A stretch of 64,000 nt of DNA, from IMG/VR virus record IMGVR_UViG_3300035670_000071; one strand, written 5' to 3'. The position numbers were made by a program, and so were the translations under genes. The notes below the pieces were generated by a model that worked only from the letters and a program-made list of their open reading frames with translations, was not told where the DNA came from and did not search any database. This document shows, in pieces, positions 7,064 to 54,400 of this stretch. How positions within the stretch are numbered: position 1 is the stretch's first letter; every line of letters begins with the position of its first letter. This DNA is from a virus (lineage: Duplodnaviria; Heunggongvirae; Uroviricota; Caudoviricetes).

Positions 7064-8401
7064 ATGATAGAATTAATTATAGGTGGAATAGCATTGTTTA
7101 TACTTTTTGTGTTCATAATTGCAGCGTTTTCGTGGTATAGAATAGTAGACCCAAGCGAAGCACATTTAGTTGTAACACCAAACAAGAAGTTTGTTGTATC
7201 GCCAGATGATGAAGTTGCAACAAACGGAGCAAAGACATATTTTGCGATTCCAAGTTGGCTACCTTTCTTTGGTAGGGCAATAAGGATTCTTGACGTGACA
7301 ATCAAGGAGATTGTTATTATGCAGGAGACTTATGAAAAGAGTCAAGCAAGATATAATGTAAAGTCAAGCACTAAATACAGAATTAAAGACGTAAGAACTG
7401 CGGCAGAGACTTTTGTTAGTAACGAAGAATTGCAAGAGCAACTTAAAGAAGTTGTTAGTGCATCAGTTAGAGCAGTTACTGTAAAGTATGATGTTGTAGA
7501 TGCAAGAGCAAACAAGCAGAAAATGAGTGAAGAAATTTACAAAGAAATGAATGATGACTTGCAGAAATGGGGTCTTGAACTTGTTAACTTCCAGTTAGTT
7601 GACTTCCAGGACACAAAGGATTCGTCCATCATTTCAGACATCTCAAAGAGACGTGAAGTTGAGATTCAATCAACCACAAGAGAGCAGAATGCAGAAAAGA
7701 TTAAACAAGCTCGTGTAAAAGAAGCTGAAGCTGAAGAGAATGCAAGAAAGAGAGAGATTGAAAAGGAAAAGGTAATTGGAGAGCAAGAACAACTTAAGAC
7801 TCAGAAGATTGCTGAAATGCAGAAAACAGCAGAAGAAAAGAGATACGAGGTTGTCAAAGTTCAGACAATCAAACAAGCTGAAATCACTAAGGAAAAAGCT
7901 ATTGTAGAAGCAAACCAAAAGAGAGACACAGAACGAATTTATATGGAGCAGAAAAAGCTTGAAGGTCAGGGAGACCGTGCAAGAGCAGAAGAACAAGCTA
8001 AAGGAGAAGCGGCTCCAATCAGGGAAAAAGGATTTGCGGAAGCAGAAGCAAAAGAGAAACTTCAAGCCGCACTTAACAAGTTCGGTGACGCTGCAATCAG
8101 AGCACTTGTCGCTGAAAAGGTTGTTGAGATGCAGAAGGTCGTTGGTGTAGAGACAGCTAAATCACTTGGACAAGCTGATGTGAAAGTATTCGCAGGTGGC
8201 GGAAAAGCAGGAGAAGAAGGCTTTGAACTCGGTAAGATGATACAGGCAATGTCTGTAGCTAACCCAAACACAGCAGATGCAGTGTTAAACAAGATTGCAA
8301 GACCAAATGATTTGGGATTGACAGCACTTGGATTGGAAGCAATGAAGGAGACCACTAAGAAGAAAGAGGATGCTCCTTTCAAGCAGAACCAAAAGAAGTA
8401 A
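7064..8401 (+). CDS. SPFH/band-7 flotillin-like protein
   Basis: N-terminal TM, PHB domain, long EA-rich coiled coil; GGGAGG ribosome-binding site. Confidence 0.7.
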   Translation: MIELIIGGIALFILFVFIIAAFSWYRIVDPSEAHLVVTPNKKFVVSPDDEVATNGAKTYFAIPSWLPFFGRAIRILDVTIKEIVIMQETYEKSQARYNVKSSTKYRIKDVRTAAETFVSNEELQEQLKEVVSASVRAVTVKYDVVDARANKQKMSEEIYKEMNDDLQKWGLELVNFQLVDFQDTKDSSIISDISKRREVEIQSTTREQNAEKIKQARVKEAEAEENARKREIEKEKVIGEQEQLKTQKIAEMQKTAEEKRYEVVKVQTIKQAEITKEKAIVEANQKRDTERIYMEQKKLEGQGDRARAEEQAKGEAAPIREKGFAEAEAKEKLQAALNKFGDAAIRALVAEKVVEMQKVVGVETAKSLGQADVKVFAGGGKAGEEGFELGKMIQAMSVANPNTADAVLNKIARPNDLGLTALGLEAMKETTKKKEDAPFKQNQKK

Positions 8402-18012: not shown

Positions 18013-19608
18013 TTGAACCGCAATTTATCGGCGATGGAGGAAAATACAATGGCAAGATTTAATGCTAAAATATCAGAGTCTACAAAGACTACAAATCACG
18101 AAGGTGCAATAGCTTACAAGCTAACACCTGAACTTGAGCTATACGCTACAGTTTGCACTGCATCATTGCAGGACAAATTCTATGAAAAGGCAGATGAAAC
18201 TCTAACAAGAATCAGAGCTTTAATCAAGAAAGTCGACCCTATGTTCGTTGCTAAGTTAGCAGTCTACGCAAGGGAACAGATGTATCTTAGAAGCATTCCT
18301 TTAGTCCTTGTCATAGAACTGAACAAGCAGGTAGAAGACAAGTCTTTAATTGTCCCACTTACAAAGAGAGTCATCCAAAGAGCTGATGAGATTACAGAGC
18401 TTCTGGCATACTACCAGACAGCAAACCCTCAGAACGCTAAGGAAGTTAAGGGCAACAAGAAAAAGCTCTGCAAACTATCTAAAGCCCTATCTAAAGGCAT
18501 TGCAGAATCATTCCATAAGTTTGACGAATATCAGTTTGCTAAATACAATACTGATGGCGAAGTTAAGCTAAGGGACGCTCTGTTCTTGACGCACCCTAAA
18601 CCAATGAACCCAACAGAGGTTGCATTGTTCAAGAAGATTGCACAGGACACACTGGACACTCCTTACACTTGGGAAGTAGAATTGTCTACTGCCAAGGCTA
18701 AAGGCAAGGAGAAGAAACAAGTCTGGCAAGAACTTATTGATTCCAATAAGCTTGGCTATATGGCCCTATTGAGAAACCTGAGAAATATACTTCAGGAAGA
18801 TGTCTCAAAAGAGCATATGATTAAGGTAGCTAAAGCTATTTCCGACCCTGAACAGGTAAGGAAATCCAAGCAGCTTCCGTTCAGATTCCTATCGGCCTAC
18901 AAAGAACTTGCAGGTTCCGCAAAGAAACGAGGCTATTCAAGGTCTGATGATGAAACAAAAATCAACAGCCCTTACGTTAGCCTTATGCTTGACGCACTTG
19001 AGGACGCTATTGCTGTTTCAGCAGAGAACGTGCCTGGCTTCGGCTATGACACGAGCATCCTGATTGCATCAGACGTTTCAGGTTCAATGCAAAAGCCTGT
19101 ATCTGAAAAGAGTAAGATTGAGAACTATGATATAGGCTTGACGCTATCAATGGTATTGCAACACAGATGCAAGGTAGTCCAAACAGGTATCTTCGGTGAC
19201 TCCTTTAAGATAAAGGCACTCCCAAAGAAGGCTATATTGGCTAACGTGCTGAAGCTCTACGAAATTGAAGGCGAAGTCGGCTACTCAACAAACGGCTACA
19301 AGGTAATCAGACACCTTATTGAAACCAAACAAAAGGTTGACAAGGTAATGATTTTCACTGACTGCCAAATGTGGAATAGTGACGGCGATGGTAGCACTTT
19401 CGTAAAGGAATGGAACACATATAAGAGTTTCAACCCTTCAGCGAAGTTATACCTTTTCGACCTTAGCGGTTACGGCAATACTCCAATCTCTACAAGAGAG
19501 AAGGACGTTTACCTGATTGCGGGTTGGTCTGAGAAAGTCTTCGGTGTGCTTTCAGCACTCGAAGAGGGCAAGACTGCGATAGATGTAATCAACAAGGTGA
19601 CTCTATGA
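18013..19608 (+). CDS. Ro60/TROVE-domain ribonucleoprotein with C-terminal vWA domain (Rsr-like)
   Basis: TROVE-type N-terminal region (HEGAIAYKL...YAREQMYLRS) and a vWA MIDAS motif IASDVSGSM; the likely true start is the ATG near 18049 behind a GGAGGA ribosome-binding site. Confidence 0.8.
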   Translation: MNRNLSAMEENTMARFNAKISESTKTTNHEGAIAYKLTPELELYATVCTASLQDKFYEKADETLTRIRALIKKVDPMFVAKLAVYAREQMYLRSIPLVLVIELNKQVEDKSLIVPLTKRVIQRADEITELLAYYQTANPQNAKEVKGNKKKLCKLSKALSKGIAESFHKFDEYQFAKYNTDGEVKLRDALFLTHPKPMNPTEVALFKKIAQDTLDTPYTWEVELSTAKAKGKEKKQVWQELIDSNKLGYMALLRNLRNILQEDVSKEHMIKVAKAISDPEQVRKSKQLPFRFLSAYKELAGSAKKRGYSRSDDETKINSPYVSLMLDALEDAIAVSAENVPGFGYDTSILIASDVSGSMQKPVSEKSKIENYDIGLTLSMVLQHRCKVVQTGIFGDSFKIKALPKKAILANVLKLYEIEGEVGYSTNGYKVIRHLIETKQKVDKVMIFTDCQMWNSDGDGSTFVKEWNTYKSFNPSAKLYLFDLSGYGNTPISTREKDVYLIAGWSEKVFGVLSALEEGKTAIDVINKVTL

Positions 19609-20164: not shown

Positions 20165-20400
20165 ATTGTTGCGTGACGTTGATGAGTGTTACTTCGCTCT
20201 GGACGAAACGGTCAGGGTTCGAATCCCTGGTGTCGCTTCGGCGGCATTGGTGTAATGGTAGCACGTTAAATACACTCGTCGCTTGTTTCCGCACTTCATA
20301 GTCACAGGATGACGTAATCAAGAGTTACTTCGAAAACCAAACACGATTTCACAAAGACTCTTGGTGACTATTTCTCCTTCTGACACCTAAAATGGTGGCG
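20165..20400 (+). ncRNA. candidate Y-RNA-like ncRNA 2 containing a tRNA-like module (YrlA-like)
   Basis: At 20213..20264: T-arm cagGGTTCGAATCCctg, then a 7-bp acceptor-like stem closed by a UUCG tetraloop, then a D-arm GTGTaatggtaGCAC; lies directly downstream of the Ro60 gene on the same strand. Confidence 0.4.
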
Positions 20401-23406: not shown

Positions 23407-23928
23407 TTAATCATCTTCTGATTCATAGTCAGCAATGATTTCAAGGAATCTCATTAGCATAGCTATTTCCATATCTGTCAAGATGATTCTGCTCGTGCAG
23501 AGATTCTTTCTCAACTGCTTCATATCAGACTTCACTTTCTTCCAATCTATACTATCATCAATAGTCAACTGGAAAGTGTGACCTCTCATATGCGGCGGTA
23601 GATGTTCGGAATCTGCTAATACGATAGCACGTTTCGCCCTGTGGAATCCTTGGTGACAAGTCTTACACAAAGTAAGGCAATTCCTTCCGCTATCCTTCCC
23701 TCCGTTCTTCTGGAACTTTACGTGGTGCAAAGTAAGATGAGACTCGGGGTATTTGCATTCGGTATTTTGGCACTTGAAGTTATCTCTCTGGAATACCTCT
23801 GCTTTGATAACATACTTATCATAGATTCTTTGTTTGAGTTCGCTTGTTAGTCTATCATAGCTTCCGCTATCCCAAGACTTAAAATACTCGTCCATTGATA
23901 CAACTTTCCTAAATACTTCATATGCCAT
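23407..23928 (-). CDS. HNH endonuclease
   Basis: KCQNTECKY...HHVKFQKNGG...CKTCHQGFH. Confidence 0.65.
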   Translation of the reverse strand: MAYEVFRKVVSMDEYFKSWDSGSYDRLTSELKQRIYDKYVIKAEVFQRDNFKCQNTECKYPESHLTLHHVKFQKNGGKDSGRNCLTLCKTCHQGFHRAKRAIVLADSEHLPPHMRGHTFQLTIDDSIDWKKVKSDMKQLRKNLCTSRIILTDMEIAMLMRFLEIIADYESEDD

Positions 23929-23963: not shown

Positions 23964-24039
23964 TGAGCTGGACGGGATTTGAACCCGCAGCCACTCGATT
24001 AAAAGTCGAGTGCTCTAAACCAGGTTGAGCTACCAGCCC
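23964..24039 (-). tRNA. tRNA-Lys(UUU)
   Basis: Hand-folded cloverleaf; anticodon loop CTTTTAA; T-arm GCGGGTTCAAATCCCGT. Confidence 0.7.
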
Positions 24040-24042
24040 GTA

Positions 24043-24115
24043 TACCCGCACTGAGATTCGAACTCAGATTTGACGGTCCGAAGCCGACTGGACTTGTCCC
24101 TTATCCTATGCGGGT
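24043..24115 (-). tRNA. tRNA-Arg(UCG), putative
   Basis: Anticodon loop CTTCGGA with one U-U mismatch in the stem; canonical T-arm. Confidence 0.5.
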
Positions 24116-24821
24116 GTTGCCTTTCTCTGCTTCCAACATATTTACTAACTGATACACACCTGTCAATCCACCATATTCGTTACGTTCTATCCGACCTATT
24201 TTGGCTAAATTATATGTCGACAGTGTATCAAGGAATCGTTGTTTATAGACAAAGCTGATGCTCAGATATATGCTCTCTGCATTCAGCTCCTTCATATATT
24301 CATTGATTCGTTTGAACCAGTGCGTTATTTCATTGTCACGTATACGACTGAAACGTGCAGCCGATTGTCCTCCTTTCTTATGTTTGTGTGGCACTTCGCT
24401 GTGGATGTCGATGAGCTTTTTTATCTCTCCATCACTCATAACCTGTGCCCCGTAACATTCTTCAAGGTCGATGATTAATATTGTATACATCAGAGACGGC
24501 TCTCCACCGAATGTGAGAAGTTCCTTTCCACAATAATAATGCTTTGTCTTTCGCTTGTAAGGCTCTACTGTGAAATTCTCATCATCCCAAAAGAGACTAA
24601 CTCCAGATATACCAGGGTTGGAACTAAAGATAGTGTGCTATCTTATTGAGTCCCGTAAGTGTTTCGATACGGGTCTTGTTATCTTTTATGTTCCGTGCAG
24701 AACATATCTCTTTTCCAATGTCTGGTGCGTCTGCACCAACTGGTATGTGCATACTTATCATTTTCGTTCCTCCATATATTTTAGTGGACAGACTGGGATT
24801 TGAACCCAGGTTCTCTCGCAT
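24101..24821 (-). CDS. eRF1/aRF1-type peptide chain release factor (N and GGQ domains only), split across two frames at a CUU-UAG site
   Basis: N-part GTKMISMHIPV and CSARNIKDNKTR resemble the eRF1 motifs GTSMISLIIPP and TASNIKSRVNR. After a +1 shift at UAUCUUUAGU the frame stays open through YYCGKELLTF to KKGGQSAARFSRIR, which resembles eRF1 GRGGQSALRFARLR. Confidence 0.6.
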
Positions 24822-24858
24822 ATCAGGCGAGTGCGTTAACCAACTTTGCTATCTGTCC
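24785..24858 (-). tRNA. tRNA-Ile(GAU)
   Basis: Anticodon loop CTGATAT; canonical T-arm and acceptor; weak D-stem. Confidence 0.65.
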
Positions 24859-24860
24859 GA

Positions 24861-24931
24861 TGGGAATACTGAGAGTCGAACTCAGGGCTTCTGGTCTGGA
24901 GCCAGATAGGTTGCCACTACCCCATATCCCC
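24861..24931 (-). tRNA. tRNA-Trp(CCA)
   Basis: Anticodon loop CTCCAGA. Confidence 0.65.
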
Positions 24932-24932
24932 T

Positions 24933-25008
24933 TGGTGCCGCCGACGGGATTCGCACCCGTGTCCCGACATCGAAAGTGTCGGATGATTGGCTTCTACACT
25001 ACGGCGGC
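24933..25008 (-). tRNA. tRNA-Glu(UUC), CCA encoded
   Basis: Anticodon loop CTTTCGA; T-loop TGCGAAT, which carries G55. Confidence 0.65.
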
Positions 25009-25011
25009 GTA

Positions 25012-25084
25012 TGGAACCGTCGGGATTTGAACCCGAACCAATAAGGCTTCAGCCTATCGCACTCCCAGGTTATGCTACAGTTCC
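25012..25084 (-). tRNA. tRNA-Phe(GAA)
   Basis: Anticodon loop CTGAAGC. Confidence 0.7.
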
Positions 25085-25086
25085 AA

Positions 25087-25162
25087 TGGTGGGGCTGGGC
25101 GGATTCGAACCGCCGTCTCAGGTTCCAAAGACCTGAATGATTGGCCACTACACTACAGCCCT
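25087..25162 (-). tRNA. tRNA-Gln(UUG), CCA encoded
   Basis: Anticodon loop CTTTGGA; A1-C72 mismatch. Confidence 0.6.
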
Positions 25163-25169
25163 ATGTTGA

Positions 25170-25241
25170 CGCTGGTGACGGGAATTGAACCCGTGTCCCG
25201 AAGTAGACAGCCTCGGATGATAGCCACTACACCACACCAGC
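25170..25241 (-). tRNA. tRNA-Asp(GUC)
   Basis: Anticodon loop CTGTCTA; G73. Confidence 0.65.
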
Positions 25242-25244
25242 ATA

Positions 25245-25317
25245 TGGGGATGAGAGGATTTGAACCCCTGTCGAGTGGTCCCAAACCACTAATGCTTCCA
25301 AGCTACACCACATCCCC
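25245..25317 (-). tRNA. tRNA-Pro(UGG)
   Basis: Anticodon loop TTTGGGA. Confidence 0.7.
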
Positions 25318-25318
25318 G

Positions 25319-25392
25319 TGGTCTGCACTGCCTGAGTTGCACAGGCCTCCTCTGGGTTACAGCCAGTTGGCACACTCCGTGCCTTAGTGCAG
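25319..25392 (-). tRNA. tRNA-Tyr(GUA), short variable arm (type I), CCA encoded
   Basis: Anticodon loop CTGTAAC; 4-nt variable region; T-loop TGCAACT, which carries G55. Confidence 0.55.
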
Positions 25393-25397
25393 GTAAA

Positions 25398-25469
25398 CAC
25401 CCGTGCTGGGAATTGAACCCAGATTTAGAGGTTAGAAGCCTCCTGTCTTATCCTTTGGACGACACGGGT
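25398..25469 (-). tRNA. tRNA-Arg(UCU)
   Basis: Anticodon loop CTTCTAA. Confidence 0.6.
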
Positions 25470-25472
25470 ATA

Positions 25473-25549
25473 TGGGTTACAGGACGGGAGTTGCACCCGC
25501 TTCACCAGTTCCACAGACTGGTATGCTTTGCTGTTACACCACCTGTAAC
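25473..25549 (-). tRNA. tRNA-His(GUG) with encoded G-1 and CCA
   Basis: Anticodon loop CTGTGGA; G-1 pairs with C73; T-loop TGCAACT. Confidence 0.65.
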
Positions 25550-25579
25550 ATTGTCCGATGTTTTTATTTACGCATTCGA

Positions 25580-25671
25580 TGCACCTGCTGGGAGTCGAAC
25601 CCAGGGTCTCACGGAATCTTCGCCGTGAAATGGCATATAAGCCGTGTGCCTTACCACTTGGCCACAGGTGC
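25580..25671 (-). tRNA. tRNA-Ile(UAU) with a 20-nt intron-like insert at the anticodon loop
   Basis: Canonical acceptor, D and T arms; anticodon stem CACGG / CCGTG separated by CTTATAT plus a 20-nt insert that repeats CACGG. Confidence 0.5.
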
Positions 25672-25674
25672 AAA

Positions 25675-25747
25675 TGCGGATGTCGGGATTTGAACCCAAA
25701 CAAACTGCTTGGAAGGCAGTTGTGCAACCAGGTAACACTTCATCCGC
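25675..25747 (-). tRNA. tRNA-Gly(UCC), discriminator A73
   Basis: Anticodon loop CTTCCAA. Confidence 0.7.
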
Positions 25748-25750
25748 ATA

Positions 25751-25822
25751 TGGGCGAAGCAGGAGTTGAACCTGCGTCCTCCTCTTTGTAAGAGAGGTGT
25801 CATACCGTTAGACCACACGCCC
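25751..25822 (-). tRNA. tRNA-Val(UAC)
   Basis: Anticodon loop CTTACAA. Confidence 0.6.
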
Positions 25823-26143
25823 TTTATAGGTTAGCCTACTCTTGATAATTGTTCATAGAATTTGCAATCCAGAATTTTATTCTGGTATTGTTGCTCAAAT
25901 CAAATGTGTTTAGAAATTCTGAATCGCAAACCTTTGGGAACAATCACCATTGATATTGAAACGGCCTTCCGACTATTACGATGCCTGTTTCTCTATCCTG
26001 ATGTTTTACCAGTGTTTGATTCATAGTGAGTATGATTATGCAGGTTATATATAAAGTTTTCTTTTTGGAAACCCAAAGGGCACTTCCTAAGAAGCACCCC
26101 GTGGGAAAAGAGGTGATTCTATAGTTTATGTCATAGCTTGTAT

Positions 26144-26156
26144 TTATATATATTTT
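26144..26156. promoter_or_regulatory. TTTATATATATTT TATA-like motif
   Basis: Member of the recurring AT 15-mer family found in intergenic regions. Confidence 0.3.
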
Positions 26157-26160
26157 TCTA

Positions 26161-26244
26161 CGCTGAGAAGGGGAGTCGAACCCCCATATCCATTCCTGGA
26201 CGGCACCTTAGCAGAGTGCTGGGCCACCATTACCCAATCTCAGC
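26161..26244 (-). tRNA. tRNA-Ser(GCU), type II
   Basis: Anticodon loop CTGCTAA; long variable arm; G73. Confidence 0.7.
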
Positions 26245-26396
26245 ATTAATCTTTCAATGGTAGATGATGAATGATGCTATCTTCAGGCAGTGGCTCACGG
26301 AACCACATATGTATCTTGTTTTCTTTGAAGGCTCTAACTACTGCGGAGTCATCGTCTTTAAATTCAAAGTCATCTGGACCATCCTCGTCTACCATA

Positions 26397-26480
26397 CGCT
26401 GTGAGCAGGATTCGAACCTGCGACACACTTCCGTGTGCGATGGTTTTCAGGACCATTTGCTCACCATTCGCCTTCACAGC
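26397..26480 (-). tRNA. tRNA-Ser(UGA), type II, putative
   Basis: Anticodon loop CCTGAAA; long variable hairpin CACAC-GGAA-GTGTG. Confidence 0.55.
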
Positions 26481-26486
26481 ATTATA

Positions 26487-26571
26487 TAGGGGGTAAGGGA
26501 TTTGCACCCTTGTATTACCTACGTAAACCAGATTTTGAGTCTGGTGCGTTTGACTACTCCGCCAACCCCCT
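26487..26571 (-). tRNA. tRNA-Leu(CAA), type II
   Basis: Anticodon loop CTCAAAA; long variable arm; T-loop TGCAAAT. Confidence 0.65.
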
Positions 26572-26576
26572 ATGAA

Positions 26577-26661
26577 TACGGGGAGAGAGATTTGAACTCT
26601 CGTAGCACCTATGTGCAACAGCTCTTAAGGCTGCCTCGTTTGACCACTCCGACATCCCCGT
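26577..26661 (-). tRNA. tRNA-Leu(UAA), type II
   Basis: Anticodon loop CTTAAGA; long variable arm. Confidence 0.65.
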
Positions 26662-26666
26662 ATAAG

Positions 26667-26739
26667 CGGTGAGGGTGAGACTCGAACTCACAGTTCCTTG
26701 GTTAACGGCCAAGAGCCTTACCTGTTTGGCCACCTCACC
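26667..26739 (-). tRNA. tRNA-Asn(GUU), putative
   Basis: Anticodon loop CCGTTAA, with C33. Confidence 0.55.
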
Positions 26740-26744
26740 AATAG

Positions 26745-26815
26745 AGGTCCATCTGGGACTTGCACCCAGGTTTTGTGGGTTGCAGCCACACGCCTTGCTA
26801 CTTGGCCAATGGACC
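26745..26815 (-). tRNA. tRNA-Cys(GCA)
   Basis: Anticodon loop CTGCAAC; U73; T-loop TGCAAGT. Confidence 0.65.
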
Positions 26816-26818
26816 ATA

Positions 26819-26893
26819 AGCCGTCGACGGGATTTGAACCCGCATAGACCTCTTTACAGGAGAGGTGCCTCAGCCGAGTTAGACTACGACGGC
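26819..26893 (-). tRNA. tRNA-Thr(UGU), putative
   Basis: Anticodon loop CCTGTAA; enlarged D-loop. Confidence 0.5.
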
Positions 26894-26898
26894 ATATA

Positions 26899-26971
26899 TG
26901 GACACTGCGGGAATCGCACCCGCCGCCTCCTGTGTGCAAGACAGGCGTTCTACCTTATGAACTAAGTGCCC
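26899..26971 (-). tRNA. tRNA-Ala(UGC)
   Basis: Anticodon loop CTTGCAC; G3-U70 identity pair present; T-loop TGCGATT. Confidence 0.7.
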
Positions 26972-26977
26972 TTTGGA

Positions 26978-27062
26978 TACGGGAAGCAGGATTTGAACCT
27001 GCGTATCACCTACGTGAACTTGGTCCTAAGCCAAGTGTGTTTGACCGCTCCACCATTCCCGT
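26978..27062 (-). tRNA. tRNA-Leu(UAG), type II
   Basis: Anticodon loop CTTAGGA; long variable arm. Confidence 0.65.
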
Positions 27063-27075
27063 GTTAAATAAATGA

Positions 27076-27176
27076 TACCGATGGGCGGATTTGAACCGCC
27101 AAATCTCAAGGTTATGAGCCTTGCGGGATGCGAACTTTTACATTCTCCAAGTTACCCTACATCGGTATATTAAGTC
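27076..27176 (-). tRNA. tRNA-Met(CAU)-like with an extra segment of about 25 nt in the D-arm (possible non-canonical intron or pseudo-tRNA)
   Basis: Acceptor ACCGATG/CATCGGT, anticodon loop CTCATAA and T-arm GGCGGTTCAAATCCGCC are canonical, but the D region is about 27 nt too long. Confidence 0.4.
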
Positions 27177-32581: not shown

Positions 32582-33166
32582 TCATAAAAGTTCAAGGGTA
32601 TAATCACAGCTCTTCGCCAAGATGCTCTGATGAGTTACAAGAAGGACAGTGATATGCTTTTCCATACAATAGTGCCTAACTTTCTTATATAATTGAGTAT
32701 ATAGATTCTCGTCAAGACTCTTGAAAGGTTCATCAAGTAATAGAATATTGGGTTCTACAATAAGTGCCCTAATAAGCAATAGCCTTTGTTTCTCTCCACC
32801 TGAGACCTTATCTATGCTTTTACCAAGATGTTGCTCTACATTGAAGAATTGGGCCATTAAACGCATCCTGGAAGTATCATCTGCTGATACCTCCCTCCCT
32901 TCAAGTTTCAAAGGCAAAAGAAGATTCTCTTCAATAGACAACCAAGGCATCAACCTATCTTCCTGAAACATATACGACAGCTTACCTTCTGCCGTTATCT
33001 CTCCCTCAAATTCCTCAAGCCCTGCAATACACCGCAGAAGCGTTGTCTTCCCAATACCGCTTGGGCCAACGATGGCTGTCATCTTTCCTTCAGGTGCCGT
33101 AAAAGAGAAGTCCTTATGGACTTCAAGACCCCCATACTTCTTGTGGAGATTTTCAATCTTTAACAT
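32582..33166 (-). CDS. ABC transporter ATP-binding protein (NitT/TauT family)
   Basis: Walker A GPSGIGKTT, ABC signature VSGGEKQR, Walker B LLLDEP. Confidence 0.75.
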   Translation of the reverse strand: MLKIENLHKKYGGLEVHKDFSFTAPEGKMTAIVGPSGIGKTTLLRCIAGLEEFEGEITAEGKLSYMFQEDRLMPWLSIEENLLLPLKLEGREVSADDTSRMRLMAQFFNVEQHLGKSIDKVSGGEKQRLLLIRALIVEPNILLLDEPFKSLDENLYTQLYKKVRHYCMEKHITVLLVTHQSILAKSCDYTLELL

Positions 33167-33893
33167 ATGAAAAGAACCTCCTTTGTGTATATCTCAATAT
33201 CCAATCTATAACTAATCCTATCAAGACAATCAATAATACTACAGCAAACAGCTTAGGGATGTTAAGGAGTCTATAATAGTTGTTTACCATAAACCCAAGC
33301 CCATTTGTTCCTATGAACAATTCTGCAGTCACAACAATCTTCCAAGCCACGGCATTTGACCTTATGATTCCAAGAAATATTGGTGGCATCATCTGTGGAA
33401 ATATGATATATCTAAAAATTCGTTTCTTGTTTTTTGTTATCGTGCTTCCATATTCGAGAAGCTGTTTATTGATATTTGATAACCCTAATTGCACGGCAAC
33501 AAATATGTTTGGCAATATGACCATCACAATTATAAAATATGGTGTTACCCACGATAAACCAAACAATACAATTCCTATGATTGTCCATACTGCTGACGCA
33601 AGAAATTGACTTGGATAAAAAATCATATCCACATATCCTGCTATCTTAGGATAGAAATATCTCAACGAGCCTATGAATAGCCCTACAAGTGTTGCAAAGA
33701 GTAGAGAGATATACACTCTTTGTGAACTTAAAAATACATTCTCCCACGTCCTTGTCTTAAACAACAAAGAGAAAAATTCTGAAATAATTTCAGACGGAAC
33801 TGGGACTATAAAATTATCTACGCTTATCTCCCATACAATTAAGATAGCAAACGCAAAGACTATCTTAAGCCAATTCCGTCTTAGCCAATTCAT
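33153..33893 (-). CDS. ABC transporter permease (NitT/TauT family)
   Basis: Six or more TM helices; conserved EAA-like loop. Confidence 0.7.
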   Translation of the reverse strand: MNWLRRNWLKIVFAFAILIVWEISVDNFIVPVPSEIISEFFSLLFKTRTWENVFLSSQRVYISLLFATLVGLFIGSLRYFYPKIAGYVDMIFYPSQFLASAVWTIIGIVLFGLSWVTPYFIIVMVILPNIFVAVQLGLSNINKQLLEYGSTITKNKKRIFRYIIFPQMMPPIFLGIIRSNAVAWKIVVTAELFIGTNGLGFMVNNYYRLLNIPKLFAVVLLIVLIGLVIDWILRYTQRRFFSYVKD

Positions 33894-33900
33894 TGTCTTC

Positions 33901-34878
33901 TCAGATAAATAAAGTATCTGTTGTTACAATGTAGTCTAACACACCCTCAGAATAAGCTGTTCCAAGTATAGCTTCCCAAGCAAACCAATCTTTATAGTTC
34001 ATCTTGTCAAGCCTTATTTCATACTTAGCTTTTTCTAAAAGGAAGTCATAATCGTCTCCACTTTCTTCAGCTTCAAGTCGTGTTATCTCTTCAAGATGTT
34101 CCTGACTCCATTCATAGTTTGCCCTGAAATATTTTATTGCATCGTCATATATCTCAGGATTCTTTTGATATTCATCATATCTTGCAACAAAGAATTTCGC
34201 AGGAGGAACCGTCCCATAGAACTCGTTCATCTCTTTTCCAAAGTCAAGCACTGTCTTATATCTGCTATCAAAGTCTGAAGCAAATATGAAATCACTATCA
34301 AACATTGCTGCATCAATTTCTCCTTTCTCTAAGAGTGCAGGTGCATTCTCTGAATCAATTCCAATGAACTCTATTCTGTCCAAATCTAAATTATATATCT
34401 TGAACAGAACTGTCTTCATAATTAATGTAGAACCATCTGTTGCTCCTTGAATACCTATCTTTTTTCCATAGAAATCTTTTGGCCCATTGATTGAAGAACC
34501 TTTCAAAGCAACAACTTGTCCGACGCTAAATCCTTTAGGTCCTACAATCTCTCTATAATATGGTGCGAGAACTTTAAATTTCTCTCCTTCATTATAGGCA
34601 ATAGCCAAATTAACTCCACTCAATACTCCTATCGTCGGTGTTCCTTTTGTAGCAAGTGTATAAAGCTCTGCTTGATTATAGCTGCTTTCTACAATCTTTA
34701 CATTCACACTTTGTGGTTCAGGAACTTTTCCTTCGTGTAACGGATAGAATATTGGATTGAAACCAACACCTGTCACAACAAGGTTTAAGTCAGGTCTTTC
34801 ATCTGGTATCTTTGGTTCGTTTGTGCATCCTGCCAGGACCAGAATCCCCAGCATTAATGCCATTATTACATATTTCAT
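33901..34878 (-). CDS. ABC transporter substrate-binding lipoprotein (NMT1/SsuA-like)
   Basis: Lipobox LVLAGCTN; periplasmic-binding-protein-like fold inferred from family resemblance. Confidence 0.6.
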   Translation of the reverse strand: MKYVIMALMLGILVLAGCTNEPKIPDERPDLNLVVTGVGFNPIFYPLHEGKVPEPQSVNVKIVESSYNQAELYTLATKGTPTIGVLSGVNLAIAYNEGEKFKVLAPYYREIVGPKGFSVGQVVALKGSSINGPKDFYGKKIGIQGATDGSTLIMKTVLFKIYNLDLDRIEFIGIDSENAPALLEKGEIDAAMFDSDFIFASDFDSRYKTVLDFGKEMNEFYGTVPPAKFFVARYDEYQKNPEIYDDAIKYFRANYEWSQEHLEEITRLEAEESGDDYDFLLEKAKYEIRLDKMNYKDWFAWEAILGTAYSEGVLDYIVTTDTLFI

Positions 34879-36107
34879 TTTCGGCCTCCAAATCGTCTGT
34901 CATAGACGACCTTTGTCTTTTCCCCATTGAGCTTCTTATTCACGACTTCCATCGGACAGAATAGCCCAAGCCCAACTCCTTCACTCCAAGTATACTCCTC
35001 AGAGATTTCGAAGTTGTTAGCAAACGTATTTGCAAGGGTGGGTAAGACTCCCCTATCAACATACTCTGGAAGAAGTTCAACATACAACGTGAACTTTGAT
35101 TTCACGAGGTCATCGTCTTCTATCTCTTCCACAGTAATCTGATAATCACCAGTTATATATTGTTTTATTGATTTAATCGCATCATCTATTCTGTCTTTGA
35201 ATATAGTGATGCCTTTCACCTTAATCTCATCTGATGCTCTACCGACCATATAGTATTCACGCATCCCGCAATCACATATACCACCGACCCTGAATAGGTC
35301 TTCTGTGTCATACCTGATTATTGGATTCTCAGTTGAGAGCTTGGTGATAATAAGTCTGCCGACCTCACCTTCTTCAGCATACTTATTGTTGTCTGCAATG
35401 AACTCATAATAAAAATCTTTCGGAAATATATGGTATATATTGCTTTCTATAGTATGTCTGCACTGATACATTGATATAGCTGTCTCTGCCATACCATACT
35501 GCTGAATTATCTTTGCCTTTGGATAAAGCTCCTGAAGCTTCTTTCTTACAGGCCCAGACAATACGCTACCTGCCAAAAGCCACTTATCAATACCATCATA
35601 TCCAAGAATGTTTAACATAGACGCAATCTTCAAAGCTACAGGCGGGGTCGTTCTGATGGCATTTATCTTAGCTTCCATAATGACCATTGCAGTGGTCTGC
35701 AGGTCATACGGGTTTCCTAAGAACACCATAACACCTGCCTTAGCAAAGTGTCTGGCAAACGTATACGCAAGAGTATAATTATTTATTATCGCTACTCTGT
35801 CTTTTTTACTTCCCTGATTAAGATAGAAAGCTGTCTTTGCGAATCTTGTTGCAGACTGCTCAATCTCTTTCTCTGAACGATAGAATATGGCCACTTGTGA
35901 TGACGTTCCAGAAGTCAATCGTGCAAATACTGCACCTTCAATTGTATCTATACCGAAATCAACATTAGAAGTTTCAAGATTATCAAGAAGCATATGTTTT
36001 GATATAATAGGAAGACGCTTAAAATCCTTAAGGTCGTAACCCTTATACAGCTCTTTATAGAACTTTGAGTCGGCTGCCGCTAACTCTACAATGTCTCCCT
36101 TATCCAT
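34875..36107 (-). CDS. adenylate-forming ligase, PaaK/coenzyme-F390-synthetase-like
   Basis: LTSGTSS (A3), QQYGMAETA (A5), YDTEDL (A8-like). Confidence 0.6.
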   Translation of the reverse strand: MDKGDIVELAAADSKFYKELYKGYDLKDFKRLPIISKHMLLDNLETSNVDFGIDTIEGAVFARLTSGTSSQVAIFYRSEKEIEQSATRFAKTAFYLNQGSKKDRVAIINNYTLAYTFARHFAKAGVMVFLGNPYDLQTTAMVIMEAKINAIRTTPPVALKIASMLNILGYDGIDKWLLAGSVLSGPVRKKLQELYPKAKIIQQYGMAETAISMYQCRHTIESNIYHIFPKDFYYEFIADNNKYAEEGEVGRLIITKLSTENPIIRYDTEDLFRVGGICDCGMREYYMVGRASDEIKVKGITIFKDRIDDAIKSIKQYITGDYQITVEEIEDDDLVKSKFTLYVELLPEYVDRGVLPTLANTFANNFEISEEYTWSEGVGLGLFCPMEVVNKKLNGEKTKVVYDRRFGGRK

Positions 36108-47960: not shown

Positions 47961-48404
47961 TTAACTCCTTATGTCCTTACCTGTCCACATTACCCAGGCA
48001 GCAACTATATATCCTATAGTCAATATTGTCTTAAGTATGCCAACAATAAATGTTGATGAATCTGATGTCATTTTACTTATGATTACGGCATTCAAAACAT
48101 TAATGAACCCAAACATATAATTATCAACTGCATTCAAAAATCTCTCTACAAACCCAAGGCTTAAAGTATCCAATACTCTGTAGATTGCGTTACCTCTATC
48201 TTCAACTGCTCCATCTGGTGTAATGCTTTGATTTAATTGCCCAGTGAATCCTTCAGTATATTTCTCGTCGTAATCAAGCCCACTTCTATATTCTGGCCTA
48301 TCAAATATTTTATCTCCATTGGAATCAACAACTAAATTTATCATTATACCAGTAGCTAAGTTGAGCATAATACTAAACAACATCAACTTAATTACTGCGT
48401 TCAT
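47961..48404 (-). CDS. membrane protein
   Basis: TM helices at both ends. Confidence 0.45.
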   Translation of the reverse strand: MNAVIKLMLFSIMLNLATGIMINLVVDSNGDKIFDRPEYRSGLDYDEKYTEGFTGQLNQSITPDGAVEDRGNAIYRVLDTLSLGFVERFLNAVDNYMFGFINVLNAVIISKMTSDSSTFIVGILKTILTIGYIVAAWVMWTGKDIRS

Positions 48405-51400
48405 TTTGTTTCCTTCTCCCCTTCTTTAAGGATTGCTATTAATGAAATAAGTGCTGAAAGCAACAATACTCCCATACTCAATCCAAGCCATCCGAAGATG
48501 ATGAACAGAGTGGCAAAGCCTATCAATATTATGCTTAGGATGTTTGCTGTCTTTATTGTTCCGATTATTGCAACAACACTCAGGAATAACAGGAAGAACC
48601 AATTCAATGCCTCTTGTGTTATATCCTCTGGTAATTGTATTCTATAATTCTTGAACAAGAAGAACCCTGTTGTCTTCTGCCCTGAAGCGTGTGTTATATT
48701 CATAGATACCGACATTGTTGTGTTTATATAACTTGGAGGCAATAATTGCTGGAACTCATAAGCATATGACCCATAATCAGATGAATAAGTTGGTGTTCCT
48801 GTAAATGTATATAACACAGGACCGTCTGTATTTCCTTGGTGAACTGTAAATGTAACACTTGTTGTTGCATTCTCTGCATCAACATATCTACCAACAACAT
48901 AAGTATCATTTCCTTCTTGTTGAAGAGTTGCACCATACACGACATTATTGTAATATCCAAGGTTCTCTGTTGCAAGAGATATATCGTATAATCTTAATGT
49001 CTTATCTCCACCTACATCAGCAGCATATATTCCCATTTCTCTTACAGGCTGGTTATCACTGTGAATCTCAATTATGTATTCCTGATTCTCAATCAAGAAC
49101 GCACCAATCTTTCCTTCAACATCTGTGTAGTCTGCTGTAATCTGAACCTTATTATTCTCTATCAATTTATTGATATAAATTCTTGGATTATCATATTGGC
49201 CAAGCAAGTCATCTATAGTGAAGGAACTGTATATGTATGATGTCGAACTTATCTCAATCAAATATATGCTCTGGTTGAAAGCATCTTCTGGTGGTGTAAG
49301 GAAAGTTCTGTAATATCCGCTTGTTCCATATGTCAATAGGAATTTGAACTTTTCATACGCACAGGTGATTTCAACTGTTTGTGTATTATTTGTAAGCTCC
49401 TGGATTCTTGTGCTATCTTCACAGAACACAAGGAACTCTACCTTATCTGGTTTTGTCATATCAAAAGGCAATAATGTCTTCTCATCATAAAGATTTATCA
49501 ATGAATAAAAGTTCATATCAAGAACATATGTTTGCTCTTGTTTATACGTGAAAGTATATGTTGTGTTCAAATCTATGTATCTTGTCTTTTTAGCCAAAAT
49601 GTTTGCTGGTGCAGCATCAACAAGAACAGTCAAATCGTATGTTCCTGTAGGGAAATACTGACTATTTGTATAGTTTCCAATTGTGATTGACATATTTAAG
49701 TCGTCCAATAATTCTTGTGTCTTTACATCTCTCAACTGGAATGTTATCTTAGCCTGATATGACTCATAATCCTGTTTGACAAGATTTGCCCCAAGAGTTT
49801 TCCAATGAACTCCTTCTTCCCATAATCTGTTTGCGAAAGGAACACTTCCTTCAATATCAGTCATTGTCAACCAAGCACCATCATCGCTGCATTGGAATAC
49901 CATTGTATTCTGTGCTAACGAATCTTCAAACCCAACTCTTAATTTTAAATTGTTATCAGCATCATCAAGGCATTCATCCTGTGGTGTTATATTTAATCTA
50001 TCATTGCTTGATACTCCAACAGCTACTTCCCATACAGGAATAGATTCAGCAACCATATCATATGTCATATAATAATATTTGAAACCAACTGTATTTGTAA
50101 CAGATGAATAGCTTGTCCAATTGGCATCTATTGCATTTCCAAGATTAACCCATCCAGGGTCATCTACATATGTTCCACCATTTGTATAGGCAACAGTATT
50201 ACCCACAGTTCCTGTGCAACTTCCACCTATATCAGCAGACTGTTGGAAACAATCATCAAACTGTGTTGTTATATTTACTCTATATGTTTGGTCAAAGAAC
50301 TGAGGATGTGAAAATGTCAAATCATAAACACCTTCTGGTAATCCTTCAACATAATTTGTAACAGTTGTATTATATGTCTGATTAAATGTTGCTCCAGGAG
50401 TTCCTGAAACAGTAACGACATTCACAGTATAATTTGTAAATGTTGAATCATCAAACACATTCACACCAGTCACATTTACTGCTCCACCTATATAGAATAT
50501 CCAGCTTGTTTCTTGAATATTAGTTCCTCCTATTGAGAAGAACTCATAAGTATCAACACCATACGTCGCAACCTGTTGCTCTGGTGTCAAGCTATTTGGA
50601 GGCATAACAACAGAAACAGTAATATCATATTCAAAGTCATTTACCTTCACTATAGTATATTCAAATTCAGTTGATGGGTTTGCTATCTCCTCAAAGTCGA
50701 CCCAGTTACCATCTTTTGTTTCAGAGTTCCATATTACAAAGTGACCATCATACTTGCTGTTTGGTCTGTTGTAAATCAAATCTCCATTTAATGATTGAAG
50801 TGTAAATGTTCTGCTTAATGATTTATTCACAAAATCAAACTGGAATGTATATCTGTCGGTTTGTTTTGTTGTGCTCTTTGAAGATACATCATATGGATTT
50901 CCTGCATATACTACTCTTGCTCTAATATCAACATCTGTGTCATATTCAAGACCAGCAGTTATTGGTGTAACTTCATAATCTGGAATTACCATATCTGTAT
51001 GGTCATCTGACGCACTTGCATTAAATACACATCTTTGCATTGGTAATCCTGTTGTGTCTACAACGTGATTGTGTTCAAACAATGCACCATTCTGTGATAA
51101 ACCATTCTCATAAAGATACTTCATATAATATACTTTGTTCACAGAACTTACAAATGTTGTGTCATCAAAATAGAATCTTATTCCATTGATGCTATCATTT
51201 ATATCAATTGTCTGTGTCTGCACTCCAGTAGCTCTTGTGTGAGTCCTTACTGTAGTCCATCCAACACCATCATATGTCTGCACAACAACTCTTGCATCCT
51301 GTGTTTCAACTTGGTATTGAAGACTTGATACATAATAGAATGAATCAAATGTCTGTCCAACCCATCCTTGTGTCAGGCCTGTATTACTTATTGTTGTTGT

Positions 51401-54400
51401 AGAGAATGTAGCATCATATACATCATATGATTGTGAATGATTAACTGTGTTCTGATATGTTGCATCATAATTGAATACTTCTACATCAATATCTTCCCAT
51501 TCATATATCAATCCATCAATATCACAATCTATTCTCTCATACGCCTGGAATAAATTGTAATCAAAGTATTCTACATTAAGAGATAAATCTCTTACTGCAT
51601 TTGAATGAGCAGAAACATTATCTGCTCTGAATCCATTTTCATCCCCAAGTGATATTAGTGGTGCTGTGTTATCTTTAACTTCAAATGTCTGTAAAGCTCC
51701 TTGGAATGCATTACCAGCATCATCATAACATATTGCTGTCCAAGACACTTCACTCTTATCCTCAGCATATGATAATGAAATATCTCCTGTTGTATATGTT
51801 GTCTCAAGAGGAACCTGGAGATTTGTAAATCCATTTGCTCCAGCAGTAACTACACATATATTTGAATCACAACTTACTGTAGGCATATCATCAGAATATT
51901 TTCTTACAAACATCCAATCTATTGTTCCTTTAGTATCTGTTCCTGATGTTCCTCCAGCAGTTGTATCTCCAATCACAAGTGGAACACCAACTGTTGGAAT
52001 GTTTGTTGTTAAAGTATATTGTAATGCATCGTTTGCCCAGAAAGATGAATCTCCATCTTTCCATACAACTTTATATTTATTATATGAATCACTTACAGCT
52101 TGACTTGCTGATTCGCTGATTACACCATACTTATATGTCTTGAAAACAAATGCATCCTGAAGAGTTCCTATCTTCATCTTTCCTATAGTATTTGATGTTC
52201 CTCTTCCAAATCCTACTTCAAGTGGCCACTCTTCTGCAGTATAATCTCTTTGATACCATTCAAGTATAGCTGGGCTATTGAATGTTCTTGTTGTTATGAA
52301 GAAGTCCTTGTTACTCGAATCCTCATCATAGAATGTCATCTCTCCTGAGCCATATGTCAATGTTGTTGACTCTGTTGAAATTGGTTCCCACGTTTCTGAA
52401 TCTATTGGATTACTATCAAATGGTTCAAAAAACTCAAATACTTCTTCTCCATTCTGAGCATAAGTATCGAAAACATTGTTTGTGTTATCCATAACAATAG
52501 TTATTGTTTCTCCAGCATCCATAGATAATTTTGTCCATACAACATTTCCTGTTCTGAAATAATCAGGATGATTAACTGCATCTCGTATGCTATAAGGTCT
52601 TACTTGGAAATCCATATCAACAGTAGATGTTTGTGCATTTACTGTGTAATTTGCAACCTCTTCATATCCAGTTCCAGTATCATCAACAAGCAATGAACAC
52701 ATATCAACATTATCATCGTCTTGAACATCAATTGTAAGAGTTATTGAATCTCCTATTTCTGGGAATAATATATTCTCATTTGACGCATATGTATTTATCA
52801 AAGGAGGAGCAAGGTCAAAATTATAAGTTCTATTCTCTGATGTCACAGTATAATTTTGCCCTATAGCTGAACACTGAATATTCCAAAGATATTCATCATC
52901 AACTACAGGCCAGTTAGAAGCTGATTCCCAACTTACATTTCCTTCTGCTTGTAGCTTTTCTGTGAATATAATATTTCCATTGTCATAGTTCTCTTGGTAT
53001 GTAAAGTAATCTGAAGCAGAATCATAATCTCCTGCATATGAACATAATCCAGAAGGATAAGTATCCTCGGTTCCTGCAGTGCAAGTTGTTGGATACCATC
53101 TTAAATTGAATGTATCACACTGGCCGCAATCGTAATCTCTCTTTTGACCAAGGGCTTGTGCACAAGCAAGATTTGCATCTGTTCCACCTGTTCTCCAGTA
53201 TCCTTCATAAACTCTTCTTTCTGTTGTTGTTGAATAATAGCCAATATTATCTACAACATAATCATTCGTCTTCTCTGTTCCTGGAATGCAAGTATTTGTG
53301 CTATAAAGCTGATATGAATCTGTAAATGAATCTCCATAATCAAGAACCATCGTTCCGTGTTCATCTCCACCACCGTGGTTACACGCTGCTTGAGAAGAAG
53401 CCCAATAATATTGATATACTGTTCCAGAACATACTGTATCCGCATCATCTGATAATCTCAAACATACGTGGTTGTGGTCTCCAAACTCAGATTGCCCGTG
53501 GTCGAAGTTACCATCAAGTTCTGCATTTGCCATATCAACATATCCTATTCTCTCCCAGTTGAATCTGAATCTATATTTATCGCTATTTTCAATAATTGAT
53601 TTATTTATCTGCCCTGTAGATAAAACATCGCCAGGGCCATATTCACCAGATGTATATGTGTTACAACTTCCAGGAACTGTTGCTCCAGTCCAATCCTCAA
53701 GGCATACTTCAAGTGGATAATCAGGAACAGGTGCAAGTGTTATATCTCCAAGGCATCCTTCACTCATTGCCATCTGTGTTATCAAATAATTGAATACTAC
53801 AGTCAATCCATAATCTGTGTTTACTCTATCAGTATCTATGTGACCATAAGAACCTACAAACTGTCCATTCGCATTTAAGTCACAAGTTATTCCACCATCA
53901 TAATCTGTTACACTGAATGTTGTAAAGAATGGCTCGTTGTCAACCAATATAGTTTCTGGTGCTGTAACATTCAGATTCTCAAGAGGATATACTGATACCT
54001 TTGCACTGCCCTGCAACTTATGAACATTTTGATTAAACACATCTATATAACATTTCCATTGTTCATAATTTGCTAAGTCATCTGTAACTGAACCAGTGCC
54101 TGGTGTCGTTGTATAAAGTTGTCCTCTATTAATATTATAAAATGTATAATCATAATCATTTACATTAACATATGTTTCTGTTGGATGATAGCTAAATTTA
54201 ATCTGTTTCGCAAATGGTTCGGATTCATCAAGCATTAACATTAATCTCAAATATAATGTATCTCCAACAGTAACCTCATCCTCACTTACAAACTCAGTCC
54301 AATCATTCCATACATCATAAGGTGCACTTGCAGTCAATGCATTATATTCTTTTACATCATCTTCTGTCATTCCTACTGAAAAGAATTGCACATCGTCCAA

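Follow-up and report, generated by a model that had tools for sequence, protein, structure and literature searches.

The tRNA array and its G55 genes

The 64,000-nucleotide (nt) stretch of DNA analysed here (the window, 37.8% G+C) belongs to IMG/VR virus record IMGVR_UViG_3300035670_000071, assigned to the Caudoviricetes, and carries on its minus strand, at 23964..27165, an array made up of 23 transfer RNA (tRNA) genes called by ARAGORN, a Tyr-like gene and a Met-like gene. All 23 ARAGORN calls lie above the gathering score (29 bits) of RF00005, the tRNA covariance model of Rfam. Six genes of the array, all on the minus strand, have G at position 55 of the T-loop: tRNA-Glu(UUC) (24933..25008; T-loop TGCGAAT, G55 at 24954; 53.9 bits), a marginal tRNA-Tyr(GUA)-like gene (25319..25392; TGCAACT, G55 at 25340), tRNA-His(GUG) (25473..25548; TGCAACT, G55 at 25494; 47.8 bits), the class II tRNA-Leu(CAA) (26486..26572; TGCAAAT, G55 at 26505; 58.2 bits), tRNA-Cys(GCA) (26744..26815; TGCAAGT, G55 at 26763; 60.2 bits) and tRNA-Ala(UGC) (26899..26971; TGCGATT, G55 at 26917; 63.4 bits). 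These T-loops are as listed in a preliminary description of this DNA, which had also taken the rest of the array to be canonical at U55, in agreement with the presence of TTC in the T-loop of all other 18 ARAGORN tRNAs and of the Met-like gene.

Alignment to RF00005, which the preliminary description had named as the check that might move a U to position 55, leaves the register unchanged: with full posterior probability, G occupies the consensus U55 position in the Glu, His, Leu-CAA, Cys and Ala genes. The same five tRNAs have an intact 5-bp T-stem and a 7-nt T-loop, and score 47.8-63.4 bits against the gathering score of 29. In the G55 tRNAs the anticodon loop has 7 nt, including U33 and a purine at position 37, and the 7-nt T-loop stands on a 5-bp stem closed by G53-C61; all six T-loops read U-G-C-R-A-N-U, with G at the equivalent of position 55. 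In tRNA-His, G-1 and C73 are encoded in the gene. The same sequences were recovered in four independent assemblies, so that G55 is not a sequencing artefact.

The sixth gene, the Tyr-like one, is marginal and below Rfam detection. ARAGORN does not call it at default settings and reports it only at -ps95 (score, 96.8), and a 111-nt search gave no Rfam match even at E<=10. The gene belongs to class I; it pairs C1 with G72, has A73 and encodes CCA, and shows A8-A9 along with an odd D-arm. A cloverleaf is predicted for it by RNAfold (−29.6 kcal/mol), with a z value of only −1.29. It is 100% identical in two of the strain variants considered below (L139 and L140), and in a third (L141, ~2300-2450) its 5' part is fused to the 3' part of tRNA-Pro, by deletion, recombination or assembly artefact.

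Compensation at position 18

Few nucleotides in biology are as conserved as G18 and U55, or the pseudouridine (Psi) form of the latter, and in ordinary tRNA G19 pairs with C56. G18 is inserted between nucleotides 57 and 58 and forms a bond with Psi55 (PMC4810234).

The main result of the present analysis is that G55 is matched by A18 in the D-loop, a compensation that went unremarked in the preliminary description, where it was only suggested to look at G18 and G19. G18 is replaced by A18, with retention of G19, unambiguously in four of the five firm G55 tRNAs, namely Glu (D-loop AGAAGCCAA, A18 at 24992), His (AACAGCAAA, A18 at 25532), Leu-CAA (GAGTAGTCAAA, A18 at 26555, versus GAGTGGTCAAA in the neighbouring U55 Leu-UAA) and Cys (AAGTAGCAA, A18 at 26799). 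The AG stretch reads GAGUAGUCAAA in Leu-CAA, where the Rfam alignment sets AGUAGU against AaUGGU, and AAGUAGCAA in Cys, versus AGUGGCCAA and GAGUGGUCAAA at the equivalent place of the U55 sister genes Gln and Leu-UAA. A D-loop with AG and without GG is found in 4/5 firm G55 tRNAs and in 0/18 U55 tRNAs (Fisher p ~6e-4), GG being present in all 18 U55 tRNAs called by ARAGORN. Throughout the G55 tRNAs G19 and C56 are kept, and the outer face of the elbow is unchanged. The D-loop of tRNA-Ala, AUAAGGUA, is compatible with A18-G19-G20 as well as with G18-G19 (AAGG), and that of the Tyr-like gene, CGGAGUG, has both GG and AG, so that position 18 is ambiguous in these two.

Neither G18 nor U55 of yeast SUP4oc can be mutated singly with function retained (PMC4117946), and the A18/G55 double change is therefore a true compensation. 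The G18A mutation of SUP4oc is rescued by U20G, i.e. only through a shift in the register of GG (PMC4117946), a tolerance that bears on the ambiguous D-loop of tRNA-Ala.

Covariation of positions 18 and 55 in viral tRNAs

Two exact-pattern scans of IMG/VR for G55 T-arms gave at least 120 stretches each, in which every tRNA was parsed by ARAGORN; being seeded on G55 T-arm patterns, this viral sample shows coupling and breadth, not prevalence. The first pool, composed of the first scan, the window and six cultured tRNA-array phages, comprised 364 unique tRNAs and grew to 408 with loci added later. Among the matches listed, AG without GG was found in 98/114 G55 tRNAs against 9/248 U55 tRNAs of the first pool (Fisher p = 8.6e-60), and, with positions 18-19 anchored by position, the 408 tRNAs divided into 257 GG and 7 AG for U55, and 109 AG and 6 GG for G55. 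The new sequences of the second scan, which provide an independent replicate, gave 19 AG and 0 GG for G55, and 131 GG and 3 AG for U55, also among the matches listed. The known Watson-Crick pair between positions 19 and 56, taken as a positive control, covaries as well (A19 with U56, seen as GA with TTT, and C19 with G56, seen as GC with TTG). Pairing of G55 with C20 was ruled out, position 20 of the G55 tRNAs being T in 44, C in 43, A in 26 and G in 2; since position 20 is uncoupled from position 55, A18 is identified as the partner of G55.

Conservation in strain variants

No relatives came up in IMG/VR when loci were sought by homology through the open reading frame (ORF) that interrupts the array, and an exact-protein look-up led to the same array in four assemblies, one identical (L138) and three forming a diverged strain lineage (L139-L141). 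The latter depart from the window in many tRNAs, yet A18 and G55 persist in the same five, with positions 18, 19, 55 and 56 unchanged, while the neighbouring loop positions 16/17, 57 and 59 have changed. Thus, the D-loop of tRNA-Glu becomes AGCAGCCAA by a change at position 16/17, with A18 and G55 kept; Leu-CAA shows an A to G change at R57 along with a compensatory UA to CG pair in the variable arm, again with A18 and G55 kept; and in tRNA-Ala a change at position 59 converts TGCGATT to TGCGAGT, leaving G55 in place. tRNA-His is identical across all strain variants. Array-wide, no stem substitution between the window and L139-L141 breaks a pair, six being compensatory doubles and a few being switches between wobble and Watson-Crick pairing. 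With pairing preserved and A18/G55 kept, the G55 genes read as functional tRNAs rather than decaying ones, at least as judged from their pattern of substitution. The survey of related elements that had been recommended thus found G55 kept in the same five tRNAs of these strains but, in the relative L131, in Glu only. An isoacceptor-wise comparison with L131 proved unusable, as identities of 55%-76% are too low for calling orthologous double switches.

By taking into account the A18 match, the retention of G19-C56, the conservation of the state in strains and the recurrence of the pair in unrelated viral arrays, the earlier proposal that the deviations look selected, not degenerate, is upheld, and A18·G55 very probably replaces G18·U55 under selection, as far as gene sequences allow this to be judged.

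A proposed alternative elbow and its precedents

In the proposed geometry, the A18·G55 contact would take over from G18·Psi55 and the L-shape of the tRNA would be kept, with G19-C56, U54, R57 and A58 unchanged. As direct consequences, neither Psi55 nor Gm18 would be possible, and the UUC motif formed by U54, U55 and C56 would be gone. A18·G55 is read as a sterically equivalent replacement for G18·U55 by analogy with the valine tRNA-like structures of plant viruses, because these use the T-loop UGCAACU together with AG in the D-like loop. The T-loop of the Rfam RF00233 consensus is indeed identical to that of the His and Tyr-like genes, and the same consensus combines the T-arm GGGUGCAACUCCC with a CAGU D-like loop that has AG rather than GG, as in the G55 tRNAs of the window; the whole T-arm of tRNA-His is identical to the Tymo_tRNA-like consensus, GGGUGCAACUCCC. 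De Smit et al. 2002 reportedly found that the equivalent of the 18·55 pair covaries between G·U and A·G in tRNA-like structures, and that only those two are viable. For the element of turnip yellow mosaic virus the D- and T-loops are described as associating in almost the same way as in tRNA (PMC4810234). The tRNA-like structures differ in that they do not decode, have a pseudoknotted acceptor and lie in the 3' untranslated region of plus-strand RNA viruses of eukaryotes, whereas the genes described here specify true cloverleaf tRNAs in a prokaryotic double-stranded DNA virus-like element. Membership in RF00233 itself was rejected, tRNA-Ala and tRNA-His reaching 21.8 and 20.2 bits against a gathering score of 40, with the match coming mostly from the T-arm.

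The general T-loop motif of RNase P, rRNA and riboswitches tolerates U or G at its second position, G55-C56-R57-A58 reads as GNRA-like, and the tRNAs of metazoan mitochondria also deviate from G18/U55. These cases differ from the present one in that the motif lies outside tRNA or the elbow contact is lost, while here the contact would be replaced. The full-text literature that was searched, which lacks most subscription journals, gave no account of A18/G55 in the tRNAs of phages or archaeal viruses.

Distribution of the variant

Among the matches listed, some arrays are mostly or wholly G55 (L036, 18/18; L089, 18/18; L084, 15/15; L118, 13/16; L063, 11/13), and these have 61-65% G+C; mixed arrays contain 1-5 G55 genes among 14-34 tRNAs and have 33-64% G+C. 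The G55 fraction per array, again among the matches listed, looks bimodal, being at least 80% in the arrays of 61-65% G+C and at most 33% elsewhere. The Met tRNAs remain U55 in the nearly converted L118 and L063, and L036 also has short-arm (type I) tRNA-Leu genes. The array of L084 adjoins a lambda-family portal gene and an S49 protease gene; no nuclease gene was found beside the fully converted arrays, where Pfam gave only portal, S49 protease and NUDIX domain matches.

Six cultured tRNA-array phages, Alice, Wakanda, S-CAM7, Cp1R7A-A1, Mandalore and Weasels2, have no G55, so the variant is not a general property of tRNA-rich phages. Some cultured phages have a second class of T-loop that likewise lacks U54-U55: A54 is present, mostly as AUCGNAA with A60, and the D-loop has a normal GG. 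This class is represented by Gly, Asp and Lys tRNAs in Mycobacterium phage Alice (L121) and by Val and Glu tRNAs in Mesorhizobium phage Cp1R7A-A1 (L124), with off-pattern members in the Met tRNA of the latter and the His tRNA of Rhodococcus phage Weasels2 (L126) (ATCATAA and ATCAGTA). The temperate Bifidobacterium phage PMBT6 (MK932884.1 19368-19450, corresponding to L262 2545-2628) carries a lone tRNA-Tyr with A18·G55 (D-loop GAGCAGACGAA, T-loop TGCGAAT), placed within the structural module between the portal and scaffold genes, and almost the same gene is present in many prophage contigs of IMG/VR as well as in a contig of Bifidobacterium merycicum.

A scan of 185,579 species genomes by one pattern, taken from the T-arm and acceptor of a closely related Tyr of prophage type, gave three matches, one in a Bifidobacterium contig with a flank matching PMBT6 and two in small contigs of metagenome-assembled genomes (MAGs). 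Among 50,697 phage records, megablast gave no match for the array, and a distant search gave only single tRNAs of haloarchaeal viruses (Gln) and of Streptomyces phages (annotated Ala or Cys). No cultured relatives were found of the G55 arrays L195 and L116.

Host clues and other genes of the element

A set of tRNA features points to an archaeal host for the element, in so far as tRNA sequences can identify one. The tRNA-Ile(UAU) gene at 25578-25672 (−), reported by ARAGORN as 'tRNA-???', does not vary among the strain variants; it contains a 20-nt insert at 37/38 with which a relaxed bulge-helix-bulge can form (in order, CACGG, CUU(A), a 3-nt bulge, GCC..GGC, (G)AAG, AUU and CCGUG). This fold is suboptimal (−9.2 kcal/mol versus −10.2 for the minimum free energy structure); the capacity to form it points to archaeal-type splicing and hence to an archaeal host. 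To this are added the C1-G72 pair of the class I tRNA-Tyr, G1-C72 with A73 in tRNA-Pro, A1-U72 in the Met-like gene, and the likeness of tRNA-Gln (25087-25162, −) to the tRNA-Gln of Haloarcula virus HCTV-16 (L261 19990-20062), with which it has in common an A1·C72 mismatch and an identical D-arm, UAGUGUAGUGGCCAAUCA. The GC-rich converted arrays show bacterial-type features, e.g. C1-G72 in Pro, versus the archaeal-type window, so that the variant seems to occur in bacterial as well as archaeal viruses, again on the basis of tRNA features.

The Met(CAU)-like tRNA at 27081-27165 (−) combines its A1-U72 pair with a D-loop enlarged by a hairpin insertion of ~15 nt (AACUU...AAGUU); its Rfam score, 24.8 bits, falls below 29, and it has no ARAGORN call. 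Its T-stem changes from GGCGG/CCGCC in the window to CACGG/CCGTG in L139-L141, and because this amounts to two compensatory pairs the gene is probably a real structured RNA. The array is interrupted at 24101-24490 (−) by a 129-amino-acid ORF that matches domain 2 of eRF1 and the actinobacterial/chloroflexi VLRF1 release-factor family, and it is immediately adjoined by an HNH endonuclease ORF at 23407-23928 (−).

A Ro60/TROVE protein gene at 18013-19608 (+) is followed by an ORF-free stretch with a circularly permuted tRNA-like module at ~20195-20265 (+), in which a T-arm (CAGGG-UUCGAAU-CCCUG) precedes a 6-bp hairpin with a UUCG cap and a D-arm, GUGUAAUGGUAGCAC. The same layout is found 3' of the Ro60 genes of L130, L134 and L135/L136, and it is presumably that of a YrlA-type Y RNA; the Ro60-adjacent region gave no Rfam match. 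Also present in the element are genes for the components of an ABC transporter (NMT1-like binding protein, permease and ATPase), for a protein with a weak match to AMP-binding enzymes and for an SPFH/Band 7 protein, as well as a 4044-amino-acid ORF, in the regions 32582-36107 (−), 48401-60535 (−) and 7064-8401 (+). The large ORFs of the element that were scanned gave no PHROG or Pfam match, the 4044-amino-acid ORF being outside the scan.

Possible reasons for the alternative elbow

The best explanation overall, and one that is considered reasonably probable, is that these are working tRNA genes with an alternative, compensated elbow that may bring a benefit of escape. The benefit itself, i.e. 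freedom from host factors that read U54-U55, is put forward tentatively, by analogy with known enzymes. Insensitivity to T-loop-cutting defence tRNases of the CbCash/Schlafen type would come first, and insensitivity to Psi55 synthases that open the elbow second. The Burkholderia toxin CdiA-CT E479 reportedly cleaves in the T-loop as well, between T54 and Psi55. CbCash, a cA4-activated CRISPR-associated Schlafen nuclease, cuts most tRNAs in the T-loop directly 5' of U55 and targets UUC, with substitution of U54 or U55 abolishing cutting (PMC13462974). This bacterial (Chloroflexi) enzyme, characterised in E. coli, is a nuclease of the kind envisaged in the preliminary description and a candidate counterpart that reads the position changed here, U55 being replaced in the G55 tRNAs of the window; given its need for U55, nuclease escape is a concrete hypothesis, not a finding. 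Its authors leave open whether phage tRNAs are targets (PMC13462974). The known phage tRNAs that evade tRNA-targeting defences through anticodon-loop changes (van den Berg et al. 2023, PMC10264068; T5 tRNAs in relation to PARIS and Retron-Eco7) are alike in that viral tRNAs are altered at the position read by a nuclease with function kept; they differ in that the changes lie in the anticodon loop or arm and are experimentally supported, T-loop, D-loop and elbow being unmentioned by van den Berg et al. (PMC10264068), while the variant described here is an elbow change that requires a second, compensating change and for which escape is hypothetical.

Several observations weigh against an alternative elbow maintained for escape. 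Only six of the ~25 tRNAs of the array have the variant, so that the other 19 would not be spared by a general T-loop nuclease, and no known nuclease specificity corresponds to the six isoacceptors (Glu, Tyr, His, Leu-CAA, Cys and Ala). The CbCash substitutions covered one E. coli tRNA, and the text consulted does not mention G at 55 among them (PMC13462974). Position 18 is ambiguous in two of the six genes, the set in L131 is reduced to Glu, the viral sample, picked by G55 T-arm pattern, yields no estimate of prevalence, and the survey of cellular genomes consisted of one pattern only, the T-arm/acceptor of a G55 tRNA-Tyr.

With six genes of ~25 converted and a different set in L131, a general nuclease fits less well and there is room for neutral drift between two viable states. 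According to this alternative, A·G and G·U would be the sole pairs that fit at 18·55, and viral tRNA genes, which have large populations that turn over fast and which depend less on modification by the host, would sometimes cross the two-step valley and then stay. Mixed arrays with a minority of G55 genes, and the variation of the isoacceptors concerned among relatives (six in the window, Glu only in L131, 1-5 of 14-34 in others), agree with it, the plant-virus precedent reportedly described by de Smit et al. 2002 would mean that either state can work, and conservation between close strains is also expected if a flip takes two mutations. Set against it are the arrays in which 15-18 of 15-18 isoacceptors are all A·G, which would need many independent double changes in the same direction and argue for directional selection, as well as the apparent bimodality of the G55 fraction among the matches listed. 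It is well established that cellular tRNAs almost never use the A18·G55 pair, and in the cellular scan the G55 tRNA-Tyr was confined to the PMBT6-flanked Bifidobacterium contig and two small MAG contigs. Neutral exchange of isosteric pairs is taken seriously but judged unlikely.

A different role for the variant would be self-marking, in which the virus or a co-resident element destroys or sequesters the U54-U55 tRNAs of the host and the A18·G55 tRNAs are protected replacements. Wholly converted arrays would suit a virus that replaces the host pool, and small translation-acting proteins are encoded in or near arrays (the eRF1-domain-2/VLRF1-like ORF of the window and a peptidyl-tRNA hydrolase in phage Alice), but the lack of a nuclease next to the fully converted arrays, as searched with Pfam, and the 19 canonical tRNAs of ~25 in the window, which would be destroyed too, make this very unlikely. 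Least credible is that the genes are degenerate pseudogenes or have a mis-registered T-arm. The failure of the Tyr-like gene at default detection, its A8-A9 and odd D-arm, and the lowering of detector scores by G55 speak for such a reading, which is refuted for the five firm genes by their covariance scores (47.8-63.4 bits against 29) and by the alignment of G to position 55; moreover, cloverleaves and anticodon loops are intact, stem changes in the strains keep pairing, and A18 co-occurs with G55.

Implications

A compensated elbow in working tRNA genes would define a class of tRNAs in which pseudouridylation at position 55 is not possible and to which standard tRNA finders give lower scores; its annotation is probably incomplete, since the Tyr-like gene was missed by such programs. 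It would also provide a ready-made test of the question whether phage tRNAs are targeted by a T-loop nuclease or escape it, with PMBT6 and its tRNA-Tyr as a characterised phage carrying the variant that is usable experimentally, and it hints at a rule by which tRNAs could be designed to resist nucleases or to do without modification. The variant probably means that the elbow of tRNA has a second viable solution beyond the plant-virus mimics. It is a more doubtful proposal, drawn by analogy, that this is a virus-specific 'stealth elbow', i.e. an anticodon-independent second front of the tRNA arms race in bacterial and archaeal viruses, whose tRNAs would give up U54-U55, at the price of the compensating D-loop change, and so survive general T-loop-directed depletion by Schlafen/Cash-type or similar nucleases; if this were true, phages with wholly converted arrays would carry a complete, nuclease-proof set of replacement tRNAs.

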